From Gemmatimonadota bacterium (GTDB lineage: Bacteria; Gemmatimonadota; Gemmatimonadetes; Gemmatimonadales; GWC2-71-9), in contig JBDTNH010000001.1 in NCBI GenBank assembly GCA_039933845.1, positions 5,426 to 69,425 on the forward strand: a DNA stretch of 64,000 bases. The letters run 5' to 3'. Shown here one piece after another: positions 2,354 through 45,838 of the stretch (position 1 is its first letter; every line of letters begins with the position of its first letter). A model generated the notes under the pieces. The model worked only from the letters and a program-made list of their open reading frames with translations, had not been told where the DNA came from and did not search any database. The position numbers and the translations under genes are program-made.

Positions 2354-3952
2354 CTAACGCACCACCCGGACACTCTGTCCCGAACCGGGGCCACGTGCTC
2401 CCTGCTCATCGAGCGCGACTCGGCCATTCACCACCACCGCGGTGATCCCGGTCGGATACTGGTAGGGCTCGGCGAACGTCGCGCGGTCGGTCACGGCCCC
2501 GGCGTCAAACACGACGACGTCGGCGGCCAGTCCGGTGGCGAGGCGCCCTCGATCCCGGATCCCGCAGCGTGCCGCCGGGAATCCCGACATCTTGTGCACG
2601 GCCTGCTCGAGTGTGATGGCGTGCCGTTCACGCACATAGCGACCGAGCACGCGCGGGAAACTGCCGATCCCACGAGGGTGGGGCGTGCCACGTCGCGTCG
2701 GACCATCGATGGCGAAGGCGCCACCGTCGCTGCAAATCATCCCCCGCGGATGGGCGAAGAGTCGGTCGAGATTGTCCTCGCTCATCGCGAATCCGACCAT
2801 CCCGATATTCGCACCATTCCGTCGGAAGAGATCCGCCGTGTAATCGTACGGTGCCATCCCCTTGGTCGCCGCGTGCGTCCCGAGCCGCTGTCCTTCGACA
2901 TCGCGATCCTCACGACCGCGCACGCTGGTCACCTGCACATTGTCCCAGCCACCGATCAGTTCGATCTTCGCGAGCACCGCCTCCTTGACGCGTGGCCCAT
3001 CGGCGGGGTCATCGATCCGACTGAGCATCGCGCTGAGGCCCCCGTCGCGACTCCAGATCGGGAAGAGGGATGTGAGGCCGGTGGAGTACGCCACATACGG
3101 GTATCGATCGAAAGCGACATCGAGGCCTTCCACATTGGCACGATCGATCGCCGCGAACGCCGCGTCGAGCTTCGACCAGTTGCGGGGACCCTGCATCTTG
3201 AGATGCGAAATCTGGAGCGCACACCCTGCGCCGCGCGCCACCGTCATCGCCTCGGCGATCGATTCGAGGACGCGGTCGTCCTCGTTGCGCATATGCGTGG
3301 CATAACAGAGCCCGGTCCCGGCGAGCGGACGACAGAGCGCCACCAACTCGGCGGTGTCCGCGAAGCCGCCCGGTGTGTATTCGAGGCCGGACGATGCGCC
3401 ACACGCCCCGGCCCGAAGTGCGACGGCCACGCGCTCGGTCATCGCCTCGAGTTGTGATGCCGTCGCCTGCTGCCGCATGGGGCCAACCTCGACACCGCGC
3501 ACCATCCCGAGCCCGACCATCGAGGCGAGGTTCGCACCTGGCCGCAACGAGTCGATGCGATCAAAGAAGGCAGCCAAGTCGCTCTCGGAATCGCCATCGG
3601 CCCCGACCACGATCGTGGTGAGACCCTGGCGAACCACCGACTCGAGTCGCGGGTCCTCGTCGACCGACCCGTCGCCGTGCGAATGGATGTCGATGAAGCC
3701 AGGCGCGACGACCTTGCCTCGTGCATCGATCTCGCGGTCACCACGATCCGTGATGCGATCGGCGATCTGCACGATCCGATCGCCGTCAATCGCAATATCG
3801 GCAAGGCGTCCCGGCGCGCCGGTGCCATCGACCAGCAGGCCGCCGCGGATGACGAGGTCGTATTGGCGACGAGCGAACACCGCGGGCGCGTGAACGAGCC
3901 CCGCGAGACCGAAGGCAGCGGAAGCCGTGAAGCTGCGACGTGTGAGGGTCAT
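2354..3952 (-). CDS. D-aminoacylase (N-acyl-D-amino-acid deacylase), amidohydrolase superfamily
   Basis: 532 aa. Signal MTLTRRSFTASAAFGLAGLV. Metal-binding motif GFIDIHSHGD. Family-typical length and C-terminal VVNGRV segment. Confidence 0.8.
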   Translation of the reverse strand: MTLTRRSFTASAAFGLAGLVHAPAVFARRQYDLVIRGGLLVDGTGAPGRLADIAIDGDRIVQIADRITDRGDREIDARGKVVAPGFIDIHSHGDGSVDEDPRLESVVRQGLTTIVVGADGDSESDLAAFFDRIDSLRPGANLASMVGLGMVRGVEVGPMRQQATASQLEAMTERVAVALRAGACGASSGLEYTPGGFADTAELVALCRPLAGTGLCYATHMRNEDDRVLESIAEAMTVARGAGCALQISHLKMQGPRNWSKLDAAFAAIDRANVEGLDVAFDRYPYVAYSTGLTSLFPIWSRDGGLSAMLSRIDDPADGPRVKEAVLAKIELIGGWDNVQVTSVRGREDRDVEGQRLGTHAATKGMAPYDYTADLFRRNGANIGMVGFAMSEDNLDRLFAHPRGMICSDGGAFAIDGPTRRGTPHPRGIGSFPRVLGRYVRERHAITLEQAVHKMSGFPAARCGIRDRGRLATGLAADVVVFDAGAVTDRATFAEPYQYPTGITAVVVNGRVALDEQGARGPGSGQSVRVVR

Positions 3953-3967: not shown

Positions 3968-5605
3968 TCAGTTGGCCTGCGACGTGACGTAGTAGTTCTC
4001 GTCGACGATGAATGTCCCCTCGACGGGCAGGGCCAGCTCCTGCCAAGTGGTATTCGGGTGCAGGCGCTGCACTGTGCCCGGAGCGGTGACGACATCGACG
4101 GGCATGTCGAAGCCGGGAACCACATGCTGCCACCGATACCGGACACCGGTTGCGGTGCGTTCGTGTTCAAGTGACGGAATGTCGGTCGTCGTGAGATACT
4201 GTTCGAACACCTTCGAGAGATCGATCCCCGCGTGCGCCGAGATGTAGGCCTGGACCTCAGCACCGGTGGTGACGCGGTGACGAAAGGTCAGTTGGAGGCC
4301 GCGCAGGATCTCCCGCCACCGAGCGTCGTCCCCCACGATCTGGCGGATCGTGTGCAGCATGTTGCCGCCCTTGGGATACATGTCACCCGAGCCCTGTGCG
4401 TTCACGCCATAGGCCGGGATCACCGGACGATCGTTCCGGATCCCCTTGCGTGTTCCGATCACGTAGCGCGCACCGGCCGCTTTCCCGGACCGGCACTCCT
4501 CAAAGAGGTTCTCCGCGTAGTTCGCGAAGGACTCATGCACCCACATGTCGGCGAGATCAGGCGTCGTGATGCTGTTGCCCCACCACTCATGCGCACTCTC
4601 GTGCACGATGATGAAGTCCCACTCGAGCCCGAGCCCGGTGCCCGAGCCATCACGTCCGCCGTAGCCATTGGCGAAACCGTTCCCGTAGGTGACGGCCGAC
4701 TGGTGTTCCATGCCGGGATAGGTCACGTCGATGAGTTTGTAGCCGTCGGTGTACCACGGGTATGGCCCGAACCAATGCTCGAAGCAGGCCATCATCGGTC
4801 GGGCCTGCACCCACTGCCGGCGTGCCGCGGCCTCGTGATAGTCGAGCGGGAAGAAATCGAGGGTGAGCGGACCCGCCTCGCCATCATAGGTCTCGTGCCA
4901 GTGCACGTAGTGCCCAAGGTTGAGGGCAATCGCGTAGTTGTTGATCGGGTCGTTCACGAACCAGGTACGGGTCGTCCAGCCACCTGCGGTCGTGTCGGAC
5001 TCGAGCCGTCCCGGGCCGACGTAGGTGCCCACCTCGGCTGGCAGGTGGACCGTGACGCGCAGCGAATCGGGTTCGTCGGACTGGGTGTCCTTGTTGGGCC
5101 ACCAGATGCTGGCGCCGACACCCTGATCAGTGGTGACGACCCAAGCGCGCCCGAGCGAGTCGGTCGACCATGAAACTCCGCCGTCCCAGGGCGGACGCGG
5201 TGCGATGGTCGGATGCCCGGAATAGAAGACCGTGATCGCATCGGGCCCGGAACGATTGTTGGTCATACCCGAGACGAAATGCGCGGCACCATCGTCGCGC
5301 CATCGGAGGAGCCGCCCGGACTGGACGACGCTATCGATCTGGAGGGGGGCCTTGAGATCAATCTGCATCTCGCGGCCCGGCGCCGTGGCGCGGTAGACGA
5401 TCGTCGTGGAACCCGAGAGCGAGCTGTCGACCGGATTCACTCGCACGTCGAGATGGTAGTAGGTCACGTCCCACCAGGAGCGGCCCGGCGTGTTCCACGC
5501 CCCACGCAGGGTGTCGGCCCGGGAGAACTGGGCTTGGGAAACACCGAGTGGCAGCACAACCACTGCAACCAGGAGCGGAACCGACCAGCGTCGAATGGGA
5601 CTCAC
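3968..5605 (-). CDS. M1-family zinc metallopeptidase (aminopeptidase N-like), secreted
   Basis: Signal peptide MSPIRRWSVPLLVAVVVLPLGVSQA. Gluzincin signature HESAH-x18-E (VHESAHEWWGN...WVHESFANY). The GTG start overlaps the upstream stop (GTGA at 5602-5605). Confidence 0.85.
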   Translation of the reverse strand: MSPIRRWSVPLLVAVVVLPLGVSQAQFSRADTLRGAWNTPGRSWWDVTYYHLDVRVNPVDSSLSGSTTIVYRATAPGREMQIDLKAPLQIDSVVQSGRLLRWRDDGAAHFVSGMTNNRSGPDAITVFYSGHPTIAPRPPWDGGVSWSTDSLGRAWVVTTDQGVGASIWWPNKDTQSDEPDSLRVTVHLPAEVGTYVGPGRLESDTTAGGWTTRTWFVNDPINNYAIALNLGHYVHWHETYDGEAGPLTLDFFPLDYHEAAARRQWVQARPMMACFEHWFGPYPWYTDGYKLIDVTYPGMEHQSAVTYGNGFANGYGGRDGSGTGLGLEWDFIIVHESAHEWWGNSITTPDLADMWVHESFANYAENLFEECRSGKAAGARYVIGTRKGIRNDRPVIPAYGVNAQGSGDMYPKGGNMLHTIRQIVGDDARWREILRGLQLTFRHRVTTGAEVQAYISAHAGIDLSKVFEQYLTTTDIPSLEHERTATGVRYRWQHVVPGFDMPVDVVTAPGTVQRLHPNTTWQELALPVEGTFIVDENYYVTSQAN

Positions 5606-16728: not shown

Positions 16729-16748
16729 GGAGGGAATCTCCCTTGGGG

Positions 16749-16776
16749 CCCCCCGACCCGCCACCCCCCACCACCC
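16749..16776 (-). other. G-quadruplex-capable G-tract in the gpx leader
   Basis: The minus strand reads GGGTGGTGGGGGGTGGCGGGTCGGGGGG, with at least four G3+ tracts and 1-3 nt loops. It lies 21-48 nt upstream of the gpx ATG. Confidence 0.4.
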
Positions 16777-16810
16777 TTGCCACTTGCCACTTGCCACTTG
16801 CCACTTGCCG
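16776..16810. repeat. Heptanucleotide tandem repeat, CTTGCCA x5 (last unit CTTGCCG)
   Basis: Direct read: cttgcca at 16776, 16783, 16790 and 16797, and cttgccg at 16804. Upstream of gpx (sense TGGCAAG). Confidence 0.9.
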
Positions 16811-33298: not shown

Positions 33299-33326
33299 GC
33301 GATTCACATTCCGCTGCAGTCGGCTT

Positions 33327-33821
33327 TCACACCGCTGGAGCCCCGAGACGCTTCCGCATCACAAGCATGTGTGCCGGTCGCTTCAACTTGTAGGCATCGT
33401 AGAATGGGCGTTGTCCGACGAGGGCGAACCCCAGCCGCCGGTAGAACTCTGGCAACTCCTCCCGAAGATTCACCACCTCGATCTCGATCAGCTCGATGTG
33501 AGCGTCACCGCATCGCCGTTCGACTGCCTCGAGCAATGCACGTGCATGTCCTCGTCCTTGTGCCGCGGGATCTACTGAAAGCAAGCCGAACCAGACATGA
33601 TCGACCCGCAACTCAACGTACACGACGGCAACGAGCGTCGCACCCTGAGGATCATCAACCACCAGAATCGTCGCCTCGGGGCGAGCTAGCCGAGCCACGA
33701 TATCCTCGGCGTTGGTCCGATCCCCCTCGAGGAAGAAGTCCTCGACCCGATAGGCGAGGTTTACGACCCGCACGATCTCCGCGACATCAGCCTCCGACGC
33801 TCGCCTTGGCTTGTCGGTCAC
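33327..33821 (-). CDS. GNAT family N-acetyltransferase
   Basis: 164 aa, GTG start. VDPAAQGRGHARALLEAVE (motif A) and FYRRLGF. Confidence 0.75.
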   Translation of the reverse strand: MTDKPRRASEADVAEIVRVVNLAYRVEDFFLEGDRTNAEDIVARLARPEATILVVDDPQGATLVAVVYVELRVDHVWFGLLSVDPAAQGRGHARALLEAVERRCGDAHIELIEIEVVNLREELPEFYRRLGFALVGQRPFYDAYKLKRPAHMLVMRKRLGAPAV

Positions 33822-33830
33822 GCCACGGGC

Positions 33831-33917
33831 CTCGCTTCTCGCTTCTCACTTCTCGCTTCTCGCCTCTCGCTTCTCGCTTCTCGTTTCTCGGTTCTCACTT
33901 CTCACTTCTCACTTCTT
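33831..33917. repeat. Heptanucleotide tandem array, 12.4 units of CTCRCTT (sense on minus strand: AAGYGAG)
   Basis: Direct read from 33831: ctcgctt x2, ctcactt, ctcgctt, ctcgcct, ctcgctt x2, ctcgttt, ctcggtt, ctcactt x3, ctt. It overlaps the last 6 codons and stop of ORF 33895..35100. Confidence 0.95.
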
Positions 33918-35100
33918 GCGGCAACGCCGCCAGCACCCGACCAATCACTCCATCCAGCTCCCGATTGCCGCTGATCCAGCGCACCACGATCACCAGGTCG
34001 TGTTCCTGATCAACATACACCGCGTTGGTCCCGTTGCCCAGGAACATCACCGCGCTGGCCGGCGCAGAGGGCAGCATCTTCCGGTCGGAATTCAGGAACC
34101 AGTTCATGTAGCCGTAGCCGGGGTTGTCAGGCCCAGGGGCGCACGCCAGCGCGATCCATGATTCCGGGATGATCTGGCGGGCCTGCCAGTGGCCGTCGTG
34201 CAGATAGAGATAGCCCAGGCGCGCCATGTCCCACGCGTTGATGAACATCCCCCCGCCCCAATGCCCTCCCCCGGAGACCGACTGCATCCGGAGCCCGTCG
34301 AGCTCGACCCAGGAGTTGTCGTATCCTTCCCAACGCCAGGTGCTCGACGCACCGATCGGATCCATCACCTCGCGGCGGAGCACCACCGGCAGTGGCTCGC
34401 GCAGCACCTCGAGCGCGGCCAGCGCCAGCACATTGACGCGGACATCGTTGTACTTGAAGTGTGTGCCGGGCGTGTAGAGGGTCCGGGACTCCCATCCCTC
34501 CCGCGGTCCACTTGGTCGGTCGGCCCAGTCGGGTTTGTCCCAGAGCGTTCCCTGCCAATCGCTGGTCTGCCGGAGCAGGTCGTCCCACGTGATGCCTCGG
34601 TTGTGCGAGGCCTCGAACAGGTCGACTCCTCTTGGCATGTATCCGCGCACGGTGTCGCGCACATCACCAATTCGGCCATCGCGAACCGCGACGCCGAGCA
34701 CACTCGAGAGGAAGGTCTTGGTGACGCTGTGCGTCATGTCAACCCGGTCGACCGGTCCCCATTCGGCGATCACCCCGCCACGATAGATCACCAAGCCACT
34801 TGGATCGCCACGCTCCTGCATCGGTCCAACAATCTCCGCATGTGGCTCATGGGCACCGAACGAGCCCAGCTGGGCCTCGGCCTGATCGCGTGGCGCCCGC
34901 GTCTCGTTGGCAATCGCGAAGGCCACGGCCGAATCGATCCCGGTTTGATCGACACCGAGCACGACCGCCGACTGATGGAGCCAGCCACCCCGGGGCGGGT
35001 AGTACACCGACTGGGCGACGAGCGGCACCGTGACCACCAGCAGCAGCGACGCCCGCAACGCGACGATCGCGTATCGGCGTACCAATCCCTTAGCCCGCAT
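33895..35100 (-). CDS. Serine hydrolase, beta-lactamase/transpeptidase-like (class C-like)
   Basis: 401 aa. Signal-like N-terminus. SxxK motif in MTHSVTKTF. The C-terminal QEVRSEK and the stop are encoded by the heptamer array. Confidence 0.8.
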   Translation of the reverse strand: MRAKGLVRRYAIVALRASLLLVVTVPLVAQSVYYPPRGGWLHQSAVVLGVDQTGIDSAVAFAIANETRAPRDQAEAQLGSFGAHEPHAEIVGPMQERGDPSGLVIYRGGVIAEWGPVDRVDMTHSVTKTFLSSVLGVAVRDGRIGDVRDTVRGYMPRGVDLFEASHNRGITWDDLLRQTSDWQGTLWDKPDWADRPSGPREGWESRTLYTPGTHFKYNDVRVNVLALAALEVLREPLPVVLRREVMDPIGASSTWRWEGYDNSWVELDGLRMQSVSGGGHWGGGMFINAWDMARLGYLYLHDGHWQARQIIPESWIALACAPGPDNPGYGYMNWFLNSDRKMLPSAPASAVMFLGNGTNAVYVDQEHDLVIVVRWISGNRELDGVIGRVLAALPQEVRSEK

Positions 35101-39088: not shown

Positions 39089-39283
39089 ATGATCGCCACG
39101 CTCCCCATCCTCGCTGCCACCCGCCAGCTTGCTACTGCCATCGCGGCATCTGGCGTCTGCCTCCACGACGACGAAGTCCCTCTGCCGCCGCCCTCACCCT
39201 CCTGCCCTGACTGCGGCACGATCCTCTTCCGCGCCTCGGCGTGCATCACCTGTCCCGGGTGTGGGTGGGGCAAGTGCAACTGA
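39089..39283 (+). CDS. Small zinc-ribbon protein (hypothetical)
   Basis: ORF 39014..39283 (TTG). The ATG at 39089 gives 64 aa ending CPDCGTILFRASACITCPGCGWGKCN (CxxC...CxxC). GC3-rich codons. The TGA is followed immediately by the heptamer array. Confidence 0.4.
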   Translation: MIATLPILAATRQLATAIAASGVCLHDDEVPLPPPSPSCPDCGTILFRASACITCPGCGWGKCN

Positions 39284-40308
39284 AAGCGAGAAGCGAGAGG
39301 CGAGAAGCGAGGTCCTCGTCAGACTGGCTCACCCTCCACCGCACCACTCGCGGCACCGAGTTCATCGGCATCGTCCCGACCCGGGTCCTCAACCCTCCCG
39401 GTGCCACCGGCATGCGGTTCTGGTCGCTCAATCCGTATGTCGGCTGCGAGTTTGGCTGCTCGTACTGCTATGCGCGTGAGACCCACCAATGGACCGTCGA
39501 ACGTGCCGCCAACCAACGCGATGCGCCCGCTGCCGCACGCGAGGCCGCGACACTCCCGATCGCCACAGGTTTCGAGCGACGGATCCTGGTCAAGGAGTCG
39601 GCACCCGAGATCCTCGCTCGCACCCTCGACCCCGTCAGGCTCGGCGACACACCGGTCGTGATCGGTTCGGCAACCGATCCGTATCAACCAGCCGAGCGGA
39701 GATTCGAGGTCACCAGGCGAATGCTTGAAGTGTTCCTGAAGTACGAGGGGCTGCACATCGGGATCATCACCAAGTCGGCACTGATTGCGCGCGACACTGC
39801 GCTGCTCGCGATGCTCGCGCGTCGTCATGATGTCTCGGTGCACTTCTCGATCGGTTCACTCGATGGCGCGTTGCTGAGACAACTCGAACCGCGCAGTGCG
39901 GCTCCAGCGGCCAGGCTCCGGGTCTTGCGCAAGCTGACCGATGCCGGTGTGCGCTGTGACGTATTGATCATGCCGATCCTGCCGGGGTTGACCGATGGCG
40001 AGCCTGAACTGCGCGAGGTGGTCAATGGCGCCAAGTCCGCGGGAGCGACCTCCGTGGCCGGCGGTGCGGTCCGGATGGGGCCTGCCACGCGCAACACGCT
40101 GCTGCCCTGGCTGGACCAACACCGGCCCGCACTCGCGGCGCGGTATCGATCACACTTCCGTGAACGTCAGTATGTCTCGAAGCGGTACGGCAAGGCGCTC
40201 CACGCGCGGCTGGAAAGATTGCAACGGGAGGGAGGGTTTGTCGGTCGAGCACGCGTGACTGGTACCGGCGAGGCGAAACGAATGCAAGGCGATTTGTTTG
40301 CTGGATGA
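39241..40308 (+). CDS. Radical SAM protein, SplB/COG1533-like (PA0069-type)
   Basis: SLNPYVGCEFGCSYCYAR (CxxxCxxC cluster), with the preceding VPTRVLNP region typical of this family. The start is uncertain. GTG 39241/39259/39265/39274 all lie 5' of the heptamer array, and the next ATG is 39412. Confidence 0.7.
   Translation: MHHLSRVWVGQVQLKARSERREARSSSDWLTLHRTTRGTEFIGIVPTRVLNPPGATGMRFWSLNPYVGCEFGCSYCYARETHQWTVERAANQRDAPAAAREAATLPIATGFERRILVKESAPEILARTLDPVRLGDTPVVIGSATDPYQPAERRFEVTRRMLEVFLKYEGLHIGIITKSALIARDTALLAMLARRHDVSVHFSIGSLDGALLRQLEPRSAAPAARLRVLRKLTDAGVRCDVLIMPILPGLTDGEPELREVVNGAKSAGATSVAGGAVRMGPATRNTLLPWLDQHRPALAARYRSHFRERQYVSKRYGKALHARLERLQREGGFVGRARVTGTGEAKRMQGDLFAG
39284..39311. repeat. 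Heptanucleotide tandem array, 4 units AAGCGAG/AGGCGAG (same family as 33831, opposite orientation)
   Basis: Direct read: aagcgag, aagcgag, aggcgag, aagcgag. Confidence 0.9.
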
Positions 40309-40311
40309 GGC

Positions 40312-40351
40312 CACTTCTCACTTCTCACTTCTCACTTCTCACTTCTCACTT
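40312..40351. repeat. Heptanucleotide tandem array, 5.7 units CTCACTT
   Basis: Direct read: cactt + ctcactt x5. It fills the 41-bp gap between the convergent stops TGA 40306-08 (+) and TAA 40350-52 (-). Confidence 0.95.
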
Positions 40352-43091
40352 AATCGACCGGCCGGTTGATGCCACCCACCACCAGCGCCTCGAAGCGCGG
40401 GTTCCCCTTGAGCGGCTTGAAGAGCGGGTCGGCGCGCAGATAGCCGCGCGTCACGTAGTACTGCCGGTTCACCAGCTGTTCCAACCCATCGAGTGCCTTG
40501 TTGGTCTCGCCGATCGCCATCTGAGCCCGGATCCATTGCTGCAGGACATAGTTGGCGTTGTTGGCGCTGGACCCGACTGTGTCAGCAAGTGCCCGATCGG
40601 CCTCACGCGCCGCGTCGGCCTTCCGCCCGACGTAGCCGAGCATCACGGCATTGAGCATCCTGAGCTGTGGGTCGGTCGGGTTGGCATCGATCTGCTGTTG
40701 AGCGGTCACAAGCGAAGAATCCGCGAACGCGCGAGCCCGGGCCATGTCGCCCTCTTGCATCGCGGTCATCGCGATCGCCTGGCCCCACCATGCCCGATCG
40801 TTGTCAAACGCCGCTGGCGTCATCCGATAGAGCAATTCGCGCTCCTTGGGGCCGAGCACGAAGCCCATTTCCTGATAGCCTGCGAAGTAGGTCACGAAAT
40901 CGGTGACCGGCACCCGCTTGAGCAGCTCCTGAACCACGCGTCGCGCGCCGGTCGTGTCGCCATTGACCAGGTGCGCGTTGACGATCCACTGCATCTGATC
41001 GTAGGCCGTCGGCTCGAGCGCCATCAGCTCCTCGCTGGTGGCCTGTGCCTCGGTATGCTGCCCAAGGTAGATCTGGGCCCGGATCAGGTTCGTGAGCACG
41101 CCCGTCGCGCGCGGGTTGAGTTCGCGCGCCTTCGAAAGCTTCTCGAACATCGGTCGGTAGTTGCCTTGGAGCAAATCGGCCTGTGCGGACGACGTCAGCG
41201 CCCAGATACTCTTCGGGTCGAGCTCGAGTGCCCGCTCGGTTTCCCGCCGTGCCGCGGCCTGATCGCGAGTGACGTCAGTGTAGAAGGAGGCGGCGATCAT
41301 GTGTGCCCCGGAGCTGTCGGGTGCCAACTGCATCACCTTCTCCATCGCCTCCTTGGCACGCCGACCGATCACGGGATCACGGGTCCCATTCGCATAGGCA
41401 ATCGTGAGATTGAACGCCAGCGAACCCCACGCCCAGACGAAGTTCGAGTCGAGCGCCACCGCCTGCTCATACAGCGCTGCTCGCGCTTTCGCGGCGCCAG
41501 GCGTACCGCCCTTGATGGCCTGTGCCCGCAGGAAGATGTCGTACGCCTCGTCGTTCTGGGTCGGCCGAGCGGCCAGGTCCTTGGTCTGATCGGCTCGGAG
41601 CGCCAGTCCGAGCGCACCCGCCACCCGCGTCGCGATGCGGCCCTGGATCTCGAATGCGTCGGTCATGTCGGCATCGAAACTGTCACGCCACGTGACCTTG
41701 CCCGTCTCGCCGTTGACCAGCTCCGTGGTCACCCGGACTTGTCGGACACCGTTTGCGCCGGTCGCCCAGCGCACCTTCCCCATCAGCACCTGATCGACGC
41801 GCAGCTCACCGGCGATCTCGGTGGCCGTCTTGGTCGTCTCGCGGTACTGATCGGAGCTCGCCGAGGCGATGACGGTGAGCGAGTCGAGGCGGGCGAGCTT
41901 GTCGCGCAGCTCGTCGACGATGCCGTCGGCGAAGTAGGCGTCCTCGGCCGCGCCCTGGTTCTCGAATGGCAGCACCGCGACGCTCCGGATCGGCGAGCTG
42001 GCGTTGCCGCCAACACCGAACGCCTTCCAGCCCAGCGCGCCGACCAGCAGCACCCCGGCGGCCATCGCCACGTATTGCCATTTCTTGAAACCTTGGGCAG
42101 GCATCGCCGCCGTCGCACCCGAGCCGGTCCGTGCCATATCCTCGGCGGTGGTGAGTGCGGTGGCCATTTCGCCGGCGGTGGTATAGCGGTCGGCCGGCGC
42201 CTTGGCGAGTGCCCGCATCACGGCGCTGTCGACCACCGGTGGCAGCGATTCGCGCGTCAACGTGAGCGCACGCGGCTTCTCGGTGATGCTCCGCGTGATG
42301 ATCGCCTGCGCAGTGGGCCCCGTGAACGGCGGTTCGCCGGCCAGCATCTCATAGAGTACGCAACCGAGCGCGTAGATGTCGCTCCGGCCGTCGAGGTTCG
42401 GATCGCCACTCGCCTGCTCAGGGCTCATGTATTGCGGCGTGCCGATGGCGAGGCCGGTCTGGGTCAGCGCCTTCGCATCGCCACTACTCGTCGCGCGCGC
42501 GATCCCGAAGTCGGCCACGAGCGCGTGACCCGCACTCATCAAAATATTGGCCGGCTTGATGTCGCGGTGCACGATCCCCCGTGCATGCGCATACGCCAGT
42601 GCCTCCGCGACCTCACGAGCAATCCGGAGTGCCTCACCGACCGGCAGCTGCTTCTCGCGCTTGAGACGGGCCGGCAGTGAGTCGCCTTCGACCACCGGCA
42701 TCACGTAGTAGAGCACGCCCTGGGCGCTGCCGGAGTCGTAGACCGGCAGGATATTCGGATGGCTCAGCTTCGCCGCGATCTCGACCTCGCGCAGGAACCG
42801 CTCTGACCCGAGCGTCTCCGCGAGCTCGGGCCGCATCACCTTGACCGCCACCTTGCGGCGATGCTTCAGGTCTTCGGCCAAGTAAACCGTCGCCATGCCG
42901 CCTTCGCCCAGCACACCCTCGATCTTGTAGCGATCGGCGAGTGCAGCGCGGATCCGCGACACCTCGATCGCACCGGTCGGCATGGTGCGCTCAGGCACTC
43001 CGGGTTCGGTCGGGGTGGGGTTGCCGCAGTTGGGGCAGAAGTGCACTCCGGCATGCAGCTCGGTCTGGCAGGATGGGCAGGTCATGGTCAT
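40350..43091 (-). CDS. Ser/Thr protein kinase with N-terminal zinc ribbon, TM, TolB-N-like module and TPR repeats
   Basis: MTMTCPSCQTELHAGVHFCPNCG. GEGGMATVYLAED, VAVKVM, HRDIKPANILM, VADFGIA, GTPQYMSPE. TM segment YVAMAAGVLLVGALGW. VAVLPFENQGAAEDAYFADGIVDELR. ATG 43091 overlaps the upstream stop by 1 nt. Confidence 0.85.
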   Translation of the reverse strand: MTMTCPSCQTELHAGVHFCPNCGNPTPTEPGVPERTMPTGAIEVSRIRAALADRYKIEGVLGEGGMATVYLAEDLKHRRKVAVKVMRPELAETLGSERFLREVEIAAKLSHPNILPVYDSGSAQGVLYYVMPVVEGDSLPARLKREKQLPVGEALRIAREVAEALAYAHARGIVHRDIKPANILMSAGHALVADFGIARATSSGDAKALTQTGLAIGTPQYMSPEQASGDPNLDGRSDIYALGCVLYEMLAGEPPFTGPTAQAIITRSITEKPRALTLTRESLPPVVDSAVMRALAKAPADRYTTAGEMATALTTAEDMARTGSGATAAMPAQGFKKWQYVAMAAGVLLVGALGWKAFGVGGNASSPIRSVAVLPFENQGAAEDAYFADGIVDELRDKLARLDSLTVIASASSDQYRETTKTATEIAGELRVDQVLMGKVRWATGANGVRQVRVTTELVNGETGKVTWRDSFDADMTDAFEIQGRIATRVAGALGLALRADQTKDLAARPTQNDEAYDIFLRAQAIKGGTPGAAKARAALYEQAVALDSNFVWAWGSLAFNLTIAYANGTRDPVIGRRAKEAMEKVMQLAPDSSGAHMIAASFYTDVTRDQAAARRETERALELDPKSIWALTSSAQADLLQGNYRPMFEKLSKARELNPRATGVLTNLIRAQIYLGQHTEAQATSEELMALEPTAYDQMQWIVNAHLVNGDTTGARRVVQELLKRVPVTDFVTYFAGYQEMGFVLGPKERELLYRMTPAAFDNDRAWWGQAIAMTAMQEGDMARARAFADSSLVTAQQQIDANPTDPQLRMLNAVMLGYVGRKADAAREADRALADTVGSSANNANYVLQQWIRAQMAIGETNKALDGLEQLVNRQYYVTRGYLRADPLFKPLKGNPRFEALVVGGINRPVD

Positions 43092-45838
43092 CAATCTACC
43101 GGCCTCAGGATCTTGCCGGCGAGCATTCGCGTGAATGCCGGATCATTGCGGAGCGGGTCGAACAACGGATCGACCTTGATGTAGCCCGCACCGATGAAGT
43201 ACTGGAACCCCAGCAACTCCTCGGTCGCGGCAACCGCCTCTGACGTGTGCCCTCCGGCGAGCAATACCCTGAGCCGCTGCATCCGGGCGTAGGGAGCGTC
43301 ATTGTTACTGGCACGGGGAGCATCGGCCACCGCCTGATCGGCCTGGCGCATCGCCTCGTCGCTCTTCCCCGCGAATGCCAGCATCACCGCGTAGAGCGCC
43401 CGTAGTTGCGGATCCTTCGGATTCGCGTCGCTCTGCTGCTTCGAGGTGGCGAGCGAGGAGTCTGCGTACGCCCGAGCCCGCACCATATCGCCCTGTTGAT
43501 GCGCAGCGATCGCGAGGGACTGGCCCCACCACGCGCGGTCGTTGTCGAATGCGGCGGGCGAGAGGCGGAACAGCAGGTCGCGATCCTTCTGGTCCAGCAC
43601 GAATGCCATCTCCTGGTACCCGGCGAAGTAGGCGACGAGCTCGGTCGGAGGGATCCGTGTCAACGCCTCGCGGGTGACGCCACGTGCGCCTTCGAGATCT
43701 CCGGCTCCCAGGAACGCCGTTACGACGGCCGAGATGGCGGTCGGACTGGTGGGTGCCAGTGCCATCAGCTCCCGTCCTGTCTTGATCGCCTCATCCGATC
43801 GACCGAGATAGGTCAGCGAGTTGACGAGGTTGCGAAGCACATTGACCGAGAGCGGATCGAGCGCGCGTGCGCGCGACAGCTTCTCGAACGCCGACGCATA
43901 GTTCTCGGCGCCGTAGTCGTCGTTGGCAGAGGAGGCGAGGATATCGGCATTGTTCGGATCGAGTGCCAAGGCCCGGTCCGTCTCGCGCCGAGAGGCCTCG
44001 GCATCCCTAAGTACAAAGCTGTAGTAGAGCGCGGCCGCGTTGTGGGGAAAGCTCTCACCGGCGGCGAGAGCCAAGGCCCGATCGACCGCCTCCTTGGCAC
44101 GGCGGCCGACATCCGGGTCACGAGTACCGTTCGTGTAGACCAGGGTCAGACTGGCACCGAGGCGCGCCCAGGCCCTCGCAAAGGTCGAGTCGAGCGCGAC
44201 CGCCTGCGCGTAGTACCCCGCCGCCTCGCGCATCGTGCCGGCCGACGCGTTGTTGATCGCGTTCCCCTTCAGATAGAGGTCATACGCGACGGCGTTCTTC
44301 GTCGGCCGGGCCTCCAGCTCCGCGGCATCATCCCGCCGGAGCACCGTTCCGAGTGCGGCCGCCACCCGCGTGGCGAGCTGCGCCTGGATTTCGAAGACAT
44401 CGGTCACGTCGGCATCGAAGGTGTCCTGCCACGTGGTGGCCCCGGTCTCTCCGTTCACCAGCTCGGCGGTCACCTGCACCCGACGTCCCCCCCCCGTGGC
44501 AGCCGCCCAACGGACCTTGCCCATCAACACCTGGTCGACATGCAACTCCTTGGCGATTTCGGGTCCAGTCTTGGTCGTCTCGCGGTATTGGTTGGCACTT
44601 GCCGAGGCGATCACGGTGAGGTTGCCGACCTTGGCGAGCTTGCCACGCACCTCGTCGACGATGCCGTCGGCGAAGTAGGCGTCATCGGCGCTGCCCTGGT
44701 TCTCGAACGGCAGCACCGCGACACTCCGGGCCACCGTCGTGGCTGGCCCGCCGCCACCGAACGCCTTCCAACCGAGTGCACCGAACGCCAGCACGACCAG
44801 TGCGGCGGCAACCAGCTGCCACGGACGGAACCCCCGGATGGGCACAACGGCGGTAGCGCCCGACCCGGTGCGGGTCTGGTCTTCGGCCGCGACGATCGCC
44901 GTCACCATGGCACCCGCGTTGGCATAGCGATCGGCCGGTGCCTTGGCGAGTGCCCGCATCACGGTGCTGTTGACCGCCGGTGCCAGCGATTGCCTGGTGC
45001 TCGTGAGCGCCCGCGGCATCTCGGTGATGCTCCGGGTGATGATCGCCTGCGCCGTGGGCCCTGTGAACGGCGGCTCGCCGGCGAGCATCTCGTACAGCAC
45101 ACAGCCCAGGGCGTAGATGTCGGTCCGGCCATCGACATTCGGATCGCCGCTCGCCTGCTCGGGGCTCATGTACTGCGGCGTGCCGATCGCGAGGCCCGTC
45201 TGGGTGAGCGCCCGTGTGTCGCCCTCGGTGGCGCGCGCGATCCCGAAGTCGGCAACCAGGGCATGGCCATCGCTCAGCAGAATATTGGCGGGCTTGATGT
45301 CGCGGTGCACGAATCCTTGTCGATGCGCGTAGGCCAGCGCCTCGGCCACCTCGCGCGCAAGGCGCAGGGCATCTTCGACCGGGAGCTGCTTCTCACGGGC
45401 AAGCTTGGCCGGAAGCGACTCACCCTCGACCACCGGCATGACATAGTAGAGGATGCCGTCTGCGGCGCCCGAGTCGTAGACCGGCAGGATATGCGGATGA
45501 CTCAGCTTCGCCGCGATATCGACCTCGCGCAGGAACCGCTCCGACCCAAGCGTCTCGGCGAGTTCCGGCCGCATCACCTTGACGGCCACCTTGCGGCGAT
45601 GCTTCAGGTCCAGAGCCAGATAAACCGTCGCCATCCCGCCTTCGCCCAACACCCGCTCGATCTGGTAGCGATCGGCCAAGGCACTCCGGATCCGTGACAC
45701 CTCGATGGCCCCGGTCGGCATGGTGCGCGCAGGCACCCCGGGCTCTGTCGGAGTCGGCGTCCCGCAATTGAGGCAAAAATGTGCCTCAACCGGCAGCGGT
45801 GTGCTGCACGTTGGACAGGTGCGGGGGTCTGGCGTCAC
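43091..45838 (-). CDS. Ser/Thr protein kinase, tandem paralog of 40350..43091 (zinc ribbon + kinase + TM + TolB-N-like + TPR)
   Basis: ORF 43091..46345, but its first ~140 codons overlap a better small ORF. Start placed at GTG 45838 ((M)TPDPRTCPTCSTPLPVEAHFCLNCG), with alternatives TTG 45889 and GTG 45901. Kinase motifs HRDIKPANILL, VADFGIA, GTPQYMSPE. Confidence 0.8.
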   Translation of the reverse strand: MTPDPRTCPTCSTPLPVEAHFCLNCGTPTPTEPGVPARTMPTGAIEVSRIRSALADRYQIERVLGEGGMATVYLALDLKHRRKVAVKVMRPELAETLGSERFLREVDIAAKLSHPHILPVYDSGAADGILYYVMPVVEGESLPAKLAREKQLPVEDALRLAREVAEALAYAHRQGFVHRDIKPANILLSDGHALVADFGIARATEGDTRALTQTGLAIGTPQYMSPEQASGDPNVDGRTDIYALGCVLYEMLAGEPPFTGPTAQAIITRSITEMPRALTSTRQSLAPAVNSTVMRALAKAPADRYANAGAMVTAIVAAEDQTRTGSGATAVVPIRGFRPWQLVAAALVVLAFGALGWKAFGGGGPATTVARSVAVLPFENQGSADDAYFADGIVDEVRGKLAKVGNLTVIASASANQYRETTKTGPEIAKELHVDQVLMGKVRWAAATGGGRRVQVTAELVNGETGATTWQDTFDADVTDVFEIQAQLATRVAAALGTVLRRDDAAELEARPTKNAVAYDLYLKGNAINNASAGTMREAAGYYAQAVALDSTFARAWARLGASLTLVYTNGTRDPDVGRRAKEAVDRALALAAGESFPHNAAALYYSFVLRDAEASRRETDRALALDPNNADILASSANDDYGAENYASAFEKLSRARALDPLSVNVLRNLVNSLTYLGRSDEAIKTGRELMALAPTSPTAISAVVTAFLGAGDLEGARGVTREALTRIPPTELVAYFAGYQEMAFVLDQKDRDLLFRLSPAAFDNDRAWWGQSLAIAAHQQGDMVRARAYADSSLATSKQQSDANPKDPQLRALYAVMLAFAGKSDEAMRQADQAVADAPRASNNDAPYARMQRLRVLLAGGHTSEAVAATEELLGFQYFIGAGYIKVDPLFDPLRNDPAFTRMLAGKILRPVD

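Follow-up and report, generated by a model that had tools for sequence, protein, structure and literature searches.

What is a run of a dozen seven-base units doing at the junction of two genes, where it supplies the end of one coding sequence and extends almost to the start of the next? The question is raised by a 64,000-nucleotide stretch of DNA, hereafter the window, from a Gemmatimonadota bacterium (GenBank assembly GCA_039933845.1, contig JBDTNH010000001.1, positions 5,426 to 69,425 of the forward strand). The run, designated array 1, is a real 12-unit heptamer array between a serine hydrolase gene and a GNAT acetyltransferase gene in a Gemmatimonadales bacterium from soil. It illustrates well a long-known, unexplained class of bacterial heptanucleotide repeats and is not a new kind of element. 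We consider it probable, with some reserve, that array 1 is a slippage-driven heptanucleotide long simple-sequence repeat (SSR), in other words a microsatellite, that is merely filtered by selection.

Tandem Repeats Finder (TRF) placed array 1 at 33831–33916 (period 7, 12.3 copies, 89% matches, score 123, consensus CTCGCTT), in close agreement with the array of about 12 AAGYGAG units at 33831–33917 described in the initial annotation, whose tally of units was exact. On the minus strand, which is the coding strand here, the units run AAGTGAG three times, AACCGAG, AAACGAG and AAGCGAG twice (units 1–7), followed by AGGCGAG, AAGCGAG, AAGTGAG and AAGCGAG twice (units 8–12). Direct reading thus gives five C-type units (AAGCGAG), four T-type units (AAGTGAG) and three variants, and the sense unit AAGYGAG can be described as a GAGA core plus three variable bases. 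It also bore out the earlier remark that T-type units put a TGA in every frame within three units and that C-type units leave all frames open. The array was compared with chance using a GAGA-period-7 pattern, GAGANNNGAGANNNGAGA, with up to one mismatch allowed. This pattern had 16 matches, all of them within three arrays, against 0.33 expected from shuffled sequence, and no shuffle attained 16. Exact runs of at least three units numbered three in the window at period 7, with none at any other period from 5 to 15. Array 1, with a unit in the range of 5–11 nt repeated head to tail over a length beyond chance, has the properties by which long SSRs are recognised.

The serine hydrolase gene (PF00144, Pfam E=1.6e-14; 33895–35100, minus strand) encodes a protein ending in ...AALPQEVRSEK*, with the TGA (33897–33895) falling in the third T-type unit. 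The final seven codons (QEVRSEK) are derived from or adjacent to the array and involve its first three AAGTGAG units, confirming that the array provides the last codons and the stop of this gene. The conserved end of the family, ...VLAALP, is found in 11 homologues, and the hydrolase of one related contig, L001, stops exactly at ALP*. Since most homologues end at ...ALP plus 0–2 residues, the QEVRSEK tail and its stop are array-derived additions. Array 1 has overrun the ancestral hydrolase stop; translation now ends at a T-type TGA after a seven-residue tail, and the remainder of the array forms the intercistronic spacer. As had been noted, this spacer (33894–33822) is 73 nt in length and is filled by the remaining nine units; the array terminates at 33831 in GCGAGG, at a distance from the GNAT start codon (GTG 33821) that was first given as 10 nt and measured here as 9 nt. 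The GNAT gene (33327–33821, minus strand) was delimited by its Pfam match and by in-frame translation upstream, and its orthologues in L204 and L210 likewise lie downstream of the hydrolase gene. A start further upstream is excluded because T-type unit 10 gives an in-frame TGA. The last unit and one additional base form GAGG (33831–33834, minus strand), 9 nt upstream of the GTG, which may resemble a Shine–Dalgarno (SD) motif in function as it does in sequence. The pyrimidine strand of array 1 is stop-free in all frames and thereby contributes to two spurious open reading frames (ORFs) of 212 and 116 amino acids (aa) on the plus strand (33371–34009 and 33811–34161), antisense to the real genes.

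The age and behaviour of the array were assessed at orthologous junctions. The window has a G+C content of 65% and the closest homologues of its hydrolase were found in Gemmatimonadales metagenome-assembled genomes (MAGs); percentages given below after each contig are hydrolase protein identities to the window. L001 (97%), a contig of GCA_038222515.1 with ~97% nucleotide identity to the window over 7.6 kb, has its own hydrolase TGA, followed 3 nt later by 4.1 copies of GAGAAAC and then by an unrelated ORF of 157 aa. L210 and L123 (73–75%) carry five copies of (A/G)(C/G)GTGAG, or GAGA(G/C/A)GT when read from the core, with the TGA taken from the first unit and the GNAT start 7 nt past the array. 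L204 (73%) carries five copies of ACG(T/G)GAG, or GAGACG(G/T), with the TGA again from the first unit and the GNAT start 38 nt past the array. The corresponding arrangement in the window is 12.3 copies of GAGAAGY, a TGA from the third unit, and GNAT. The array is absent from L122 (84%) and L203 (74%). The number of units at the hydrolase end is thus 12.3, 4.1, 5, 5 and 0, so that both number and sequence vary at orthologous sites. Variation in unit number between relatives, which the initial annotation had suggested looking for, is evident even between the window and the ~97% identical L001, at the same place. In all four array-bearing lineages, the window included, the first GAGA lies 8–9 nt past a conserved TTGCC, and the register agrees to within 1 nt. 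The alignment has invariant GAGA columns at intervals of 7 nt, and the other three positions vary among lineages. Position, register and GAGA core therefore persist, while relatives differ through rapid turnover of unit number and of the three variable bases. The alignments indicate that the array is old and anchored at the hydrolase 3′ end, with units kept alike within each lineage. Distances from the hydrolase stop to the GNAT start were 76, 39 and 80 nt, or 1, 0 and 2 modulo 3, and because they differ in this way the spacer is free of reading-frame constraint. Two contig pairs with identical hydrolase proteins (L206/L207 and L208/L209) were 100% identical in DNA throughout, and hence uninformative on polymorphism; a metagenome scan with the hydrolase protein gave a best identity of 75% and returned no close strain. 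Look-ups for proteins identical to the hydrolase and to a glycosyltransferase of the window yielded no match. Comparison of positions 33316–33877 of the window with 2506–3019 of L001 also revealed that the downstream gene is swapped, GNAT in the one and the unrelated 157-aa ORF, which had no Pfam match and a signal-peptide-like N-terminus, in the other. The left homology breakpoint falls inside array 1 and the right one just beyond the stop of a convergent M1 peptidase gene.

To assess the consequences of slippage for the two proteins, T-type units were added to or removed from the 5′ end of array 1 in simulation, and each of units 4–12 was deleted. With one or two leading T-type units lost, the hydrolase tail had 21 or 28 aa instead of 7, whereas all other simulated changes, including each deletion among units 4–12 and the gain of 1–2 T-type units, left both proteins unaltered. 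The initial annotation had proposed that slippage would alter the hydrolase C-terminus, which holds only for loss of the leading T-type units, and that it would alter the SD and spacing context of the GNAT gene, which is incorrect; the 3′ end of array 1 is fixed, and the GAGG-to-GTG spacing cannot change for that reason. These results bear on the possibility of a contingency (phase-variation) locus, in which slippage by a unit that is not a multiple of three would switch the hydrolase C-terminus or, at a second array (array 2, described below), the frame of a radical-SAM gene. A 7-nt unit at a gene terminus and the lengthening of the tail from 7 to 21 or 28 aa would suit such a locus, as would array 2, which separates the probable start of the radical-SAM protein from its conserved core, so that a change of one unit would cause a frameshift. 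There is also a precedent in Haemophilus influenzae, where HMW adhesin expression is under the control of heptanucleotide SSRs (PMC12721329, PMC8262952). We nevertheless think phase variation improbable: nearly all one-unit changes in array 1 are silent for both proteins, the hydrolase tail lies beyond the conserved family end and is dispensable, the radical-SAM frame is ON in six of six lineages with no OFF variant seen, and the associated genes encode housekeeping-type enzymes of a free-living soil bacterium. For the heptamers of Xanthomonas and Nostoc, Rehm et al. (2015; PMC4692102) came to the same negative conclusion.

The sense RNA of array 1 is purine-rich and essentially unstructured, with a centroid of −3.9 kcal/mol (z = +1.37), and folding on this evidence ruled out a hairpin, an intrinsic terminator and a palindrome resembling repetitive extragenic palindromes. 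A scan of the surroundings placed neither a terminator-like nor a promoter-like site at array 1, and the covariance models of Rfam 15 gave no match above the gathering threshold anywhere in the window. A G-quadruplex, for which at least four tracts of three or more G are needed, was ruled out by the lack of GGG in any unit. Inspection of the sequence alone led us to discard three further candidates, namely H-DNA (the unit is not a mirror repeat), Hfq binding of the (ARN)n type (a period of 7 disrupts triplet phasing) and TRAP-like GAG spacing (the spacer is 4 nt rather than 2–3).

Three further period-7 arrays had been listed in the window, at 39284–39311, 40312–40351 and 16776–16810, and all were recovered by TRF, the last as 16776–16809. 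Array 1 occupies a spacer and the last codons of a gene, array 2 a probable N-terminal extension, array 3 a convergent spacer and array 4 a 5′ region, in keeping with the non-coding or gene-terminal placement of long SSRs. Array 2 (39284–39311, plus strand; four copies of AAGCGAG) directly follows the TGA (39281–39283) of a conserved small Zn-ribbon ORF (39092–39283, plus strand; ...CPDCG...CPGCGWGKCN*), as seen from TRF, ORFs and alignment. The start of this ORF is uncertain (ATG 39092 or TTG 39014); its Pfam zinc-ribbon match was weak and under the curated cut-off, and orthologues of 84–89 aa are called in L122, L203, L204 and L210. The adjoining gene (39274–40308, plus strand; PF04055) encodes an SPL-type radical-SAM protein of the 'DNA repair photolyase' family. 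It probably starts at GTG 39274, which precedes the Zn-ribbon stop by 7 nt, and the corresponding GTG is the called start of a 98% identical protein (P0121). A strain with a radical-SAM protein of 98% identity is represented in the read run SRR19962012. In the radical-SAM protein the conserved core starts W-L-x-L-H-R, and in the window no canonical start codon is present between array 2 and that W. Six lineages have 44, 89, 86, 92, 80 and 119 nt between the Zn-ribbon stop and the W codon, in every case 2 modulo 3 (chance ~0.004), and five of them have an ATG or GTG that overlaps the Zn-ribbon stop as ATGA or GTGA. Start–stop overlaps of this kind are classic of translationally coupled genes. 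Because the frame is kept, the overlap recurs and GTG 39274 precedes the stop, array 2 is most likely translated, as KARSERREAR, within a hypervariable N-terminal extension of the radical-SAM protein, and it is probably not a 3′ untranslated region (UTR) element. It had been described as purine-rich in sense immediately after a stop codon; it does follow the Zn-ribbon stop, but probably lies within the translated 5′ end of the radical-SAM gene. Array size would accordingly be limited only where a reading frame must be kept, since the radical-SAM distances are equal modulo 3 and the hydrolase–GNAT ones are not.

In relatives, the Zn-ribbon/radical-SAM junction holds an inverted pair of heptamer arrays, the arms of which differ among genomes yet remain complementary (L122 9849–9946; L203 10038–10132; L204 4990–5090; L205 4626–4714; L210 1960–2150 on the minus strand). 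Folding of the pairs in relatives gave −37 to −65 kcal/mol and z values as low as −6.3; the window junction (39274–39330) has a remnant of the second arm only and does not fold (z = 0.19). The repeat-built hairpin appears to be translated as the hypervariable N-terminal extension, and it is because of this repeat-built stretch that gene callers disagree on the radical-SAM start. Within the radical-SAM coding sequence, ARAGORN reported a 94-nt tRNA-Phe (GAA) at 39971–40064 (plus strand), probably a false positive.

Array 3 (40312–40351, minus strand; TRF) consists of 5.7 perfect copies of AAGTGAG and fills a 41-nt gap between convergent stops, the radical-SAM TGA (40306–40308) and the TAA (40352–40350) of a Ser/Thr protein kinase gene (40350–43094, minus strand; Pkinase and TPR domains, Pfam E=1.4e-50). 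The last bases of the TAA belong to the array. The description of array 3 as purine-sense after a stop is therefore right for the kinase gene, but for the convergent radical-SAM gene the array is pyrimidine-sense. The orthologous array of L122, 6.4 copies of CGAGAAG (AAGCGAG), ends at a distance of 2 nt from the kinase stop, with ~130 nt separating it from that of the radical-SAM gene. L205 differs in having a purine-rich array within the 3′ end of the radical-SAM gene itself, where it yields ...RREARSERQEVRSE*. Array 4 (16776–16809 by TRF, 16774–16809 as delimited here; minus strand), which reads TGGCAAG in sense (4.9 copies of CTTGCCA), is situated 48 nt upstream of the ATG (16728) of a glutathione peroxidase gene, in the region between that gene and a divergent cold-shock protein gene (Pfam GSHPx and CSD). 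A C-rich run (16745–16776) adjoins array 4 and reads GGGTGGTGGGGGGTGGCGGGTCGGGGGG on the sense strand of the glutathione peroxidase gene; TRF reported it as a weak period-7 repeat (CCCCCCA).

The arrays of the window are part of a recurring family, as the initial annotation had surmised: period-7 arrays numbered 16 in 125 kb of related Gemmatimonadales contigs with called genes, a density of about one per 8 kb, and periods 5, 6 and 8–12 were not represented. Units in these contigs were mostly GAGAnnn, but also GGTGAAA, CATCCAA, GATCGGC and others. A further 770 kb of soil contigs, which were obtained by protein similarity to the hydrolase and are hence unbiased for repeats, gave 16 exact runs at period 7 and 3, 2, 3 and 1 at periods 5, 6, 8 and 9. 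Window and related contigs thus both show the several arrays, and the predominance of period 7 over neighbouring periods, that are expected of long SSRs. A scan of 185,579 species genomes for GAGAANN repeated 3.4 times gave at least 119 matching stretches; those listed included Acidobacteriota, Gemmatimonadota, Bacteroidota, Cyanobacteria, Planctomycetota, Verrucomicrobiota and other groups, and many of the listed loci also hold several unrelated heptamer arrays or inverted pairs. Among the matches listed, the GAGAAnn strand was sense in 20 and antisense in 25 co-directional spacers. This count is rough, being based on our own composition-based gene finder, which recovered ~70% of called L122 genes and whose start-trimming variant added false positives. 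A universal rule that the purine strand is sense was rejected on these numbers; the earlier claim that the purine strand is in sense after stop codons stands for the Gemmatimonadales lineage and fails across phyla. Acidobacteriaceae and Sulfotelmatobacter MAGs (L008, L030, L041, L042, L057, L063, L071 and others) were found to contain many GAACTGA arrays of up to ~11 units. GAACTGA is one base from TAACTGA, and several of these arrays end within ~6 nt of a gene end predicted by the same gene finder.

Orientation is also the point at which a strand-specific Rho insulator has to be weighed. The pyrimidine strand, C-rich and G-poor (CUCRCUU)n, would resemble a Rho-utilisation (rut) site, at which Rho would end antisense transcripts or, at array 3, the radical-SAM 3′ UTR, and a purine-sense orientation would avoid polarity within operons. 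In favour of this idea, the plus-strand unit of array 3, CACTTCT, has three C and no G, and that array lies exactly between convergent genes; the sense strand is C-poor in co-directional spacers of this lineage, and array 1 has no intrinsic terminator. The argument is one of composition alone, however, and at 28–40 nt the arrays fall short of the usual length of a rut site. Other phyla have the pyrimidine strand in sense in roughly half of their co-directional spacers, and the pyrimidine-rich second arms of the inverted pairs are in sense inside a probable coding region. We regard an insulator of this type as a poor prospect, marginally poorer than phase variation.

Inverted arrangements were also found in another Gemmatimonadales MAG (L206), where each of two GGTGAAA arrays is paired with an inverted TTTCACC array 0.8–1.0 kb away (1461–1487 with 2305–2327; 3100–3138 with 4130–4152). 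Each pair brackets one gene, encoding a Zn-ribbon protein and an AhpC-type peroxiredoxin, respectively. The two TTTCACC arrays are identical in sequence and the GGTGAAA arrays share their first 19 bases; the pairs could be cassette-like or could engage in long-range RNA pairing. This bracketing of single genes, together with the exchange of GNAT for the 157-aa ORF between the window and L001 with its left breakpoint inside array 1, would favour a DNA-level element, either a recombination or cassette-exchange hotspot or non-B DNA at the edge of a variable gene slot. Any breakpoint between a conserved and a swapped gene must fall in the spacer anyway, though, which at this junction is filled by the array. 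The annotated stretches show no neighbouring integrase or transposase gene, the unit has no G-tracts and is not a mirror repeat, and array 1 has no inverted partner. A DNA-level role is accordingly the least probable of the explanations considered here, and we give it very little weight.

If array 1 is a slippage-driven repeat filtered by selection, replication slippage would create it and keep its units alike, in the setting of a short and presumably co-transcribed co-directional spacer between the hydrolase and GNAT genes. The array would have no dedicated function, and the stop codon, tail and terminal GAGG that it contributes would be incidental and tolerated by selection. Selection would act as a filter, allowing arrays only outside coding sequences or at their very ends. 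It would require an in-frame stop where an array enters an ORF, keep the frame where an array is translated (array 2) and, in this lineage, favour the purine-rich, C-poor strand as the transcript.

Several observations weigh against this account. An in-register array with an invariant GAGA core is retained at this junction even where hydrolase identity has dropped to 73%. Neutral DNA would be expected to disappear sooner in a bacterium with a deletion bias, and the persistence hints at selective maintenance. Among the lineage's arrays starting no more than 25 nt past a stop, 14 of 15 are purine-sense (~7 independent loci, 6 of them purine-sense), and in seven of seven co-directional spacers (~4 independent loci) the array is nearer to the upstream stop than to the downstream start. 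Arrays 2 and 3, 1 kb apart, are on opposite strands, and because of this opposition orientation follows transcription and not replication. Slippage alone does not explain the persistence, the anchoring at stops, the purine-sense bias or the transcription-linked orientation.

The same observations would be accommodated by a functional intercistronic RNA element, a purine-rich, structure-free, GAGA-periodic platform that would adjust how the downstream gene is translated or how stable the upstream mRNA is. It might serve as a ribosome standby or SD-like platform, or as a multi-site pad for a single-strand-binding protein with a footprint of ~7 nt (cold-shock domain, S1 or KH). Besides the conserved register and core and the transcription-tracking purine strand, this idea draws on an RNA that is less structured than its shuffles in a genome of 65% G+C, and on the end of array 1 in GAGG 9 nt ahead of the GTG. 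Binding of S1, Csp or CsrA has been proposed for TAACTGA repeats upstream of starts (MacGregor, 2015; PMC4679880), and a Nostoc preprint describes altered reporter output upon deletion of heptamer repeats, without a mechanism (10.1101/2022.06.06.494920). On the other hand, the gap between array end and GNAT start is not conserved, being 9 nt in the window, 7 nt in L210 and 38 nt in L204, where no SD-like motif precedes the GTG. The array is missing in two lineages (L122 and L203), the downstream gene is exchangeable while the array stays (L001), copy number spans 4 to 12, the GAGAAnn strand shows no preference across phyla by the rough count given above, and the AAGYGAG unit has no known binding protein. 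An RNA element of this kind is the alternative that we take most seriously, although we hold it to be distinctly doubtful. A broader version is that GAGA-periodic arrays are a lineage-wide selected cis-element at stops, organising termination, re-initiation and mRNA fate at gene junctions, with a period that mirrors the footprint of a single-strand-binding protein (for example, a cold-shock-domain protein) or of the 16S 3′ tail and not slippage. It would explain the in-register persistence of a GAGA core over deep divergence as well as the transcription-linked orientation; we consider it a long shot. Were it true, Gemmatimonadales would offer a tractable route to why bacteria accumulate heptamers.

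Whichever explanation applies to array 1, the slippage-driven repeat that we favour included, the locus is of wider use. Heptanucleotide arrays have been reported from cyanobacteria (short tandemly repeated repetitive sequences, STRR), Xanthomonas, Burkholderia, Beggiatoaceae and Bacteroidetes; the present locus adds Gemmatimonadales, and the cross-phylum scan adds many Acidobacteriota, Planctomycetota and Verrucomicrobiota. The hydrolase junction provides a clean comparative series, with in-register homologous arrays at one junction, a fixed GAGA core and fast change in variable positions and copy number, and this series could help to address the bacterial preference for heptamers. It comes with an internal control, as arrays in true spacers drift in length modulo 3 and arrays in a probable coding extension hold frame. 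There are consequences for annotation as well: arrays create or extend ORF ends (the hydrolase tail, and radical-SAM N- and C-terminal tails in relatives), and they give rise to spurious long ORFs on the pyrimidine strand and to inconsistent start-codon calls.

Among known systems, the arrays are closest in kind to the long SSRs with units of 5–11 nt. In many bacterial genomes heptanucleotides outnumber every other class of long SSR (Mrazek, Guo and Shah, 2007, as cited in PMC4679880 and PMC4692102), and the cause proposed for the period, again as relayed by PMC4679880, is that the DNA segment held by the polymerase matches 7 nt and favours 7-nt slippage. Gemmatimonadales arrays share with this class tandems of 7 nt beyond chance, the predominance of period 7 and a bias towards non-coding DNA, hosts that are free-living bacteria with large genomes, several unit sequences per genome and lengths that vary between relatives. 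Unlike the class in general, they abut or overlap stops and can be translated at gene termini. No earlier description of heptamer arrays of Gemmatimonadales or Gemmatimonadetes was found in the literature searched.

According to Rehm et al. (2015; PMC4692102), the GGGAATC arrays of Xanthomonas and the GGGGA(C/T)T arrays of Nostoc are found between the same gene pairs across related species, with highly variable length and sequence. These arrays favour the vicinity of ORF ends, their G-rich strand being placed downstream on the coding strand, and inverted pairs occur; the same paper reports no functional theme among the genes and no function identified. Such placement, turnover and inverted pairs are likewise seen in Gemmatimonadales. 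GGGAATC-type units differ in having tracts of 3–4 G, G-quadruplexes and a preferred size of four units, whereas AAGYGAG has no G-tract and no G-quadruplex. TAACTGA direct repeats occur in marine Beggiatoaceae, Cyanobacteria and Bacteroidetes and have been proposed to play a role in translation (MacGregor, 2015; PMC4679880). They too are heptamer arrays with a TGA in the unit, so that all frames stop, intergenic and patchy across phyla; GAAGTGA shares five of seven positions with TAACTGA and the acidobacterial GAACTGA six of seven. TAACTGA sets, however, mostly comprise 2–6 copies a few nt upstream of starts, and the present arrays, with a unit differing at two of seven positions and anchored at the upstream stop, fall outside that family. 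The 7-bp repeats upstream of H. influenzae hmw1A/hmw2A are similar in having a slippage-prone 7-nt unit able to alter expression or frame. They are situated in promoters or 5′ UTRs of surface-antigen genes of host-adapted pathogens, with demonstrated ON/OFF or graded switching; array 1, in contrast, is 3′-terminal or intercistronic, and most of its length changes are silent. Cyanobacterial STRR are similar in being tandem heptanucleotides with many copies per genome. Their units are other sequences and are defined for heterocystous cyanobacteria, and array 1, with its AAGYGAG unit and Gemmatimonadales host, is not one of them. Three heptanucleotides have been reported in Calothrix PCC 7601. 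The choice of STRR as the nearest analogue in the initial annotation nevertheless pointed to the right class, the bacterial heptanucleotide long SSRs documented in PMC4679880 and PMC4692102, both of which cite Mrazek (2007).

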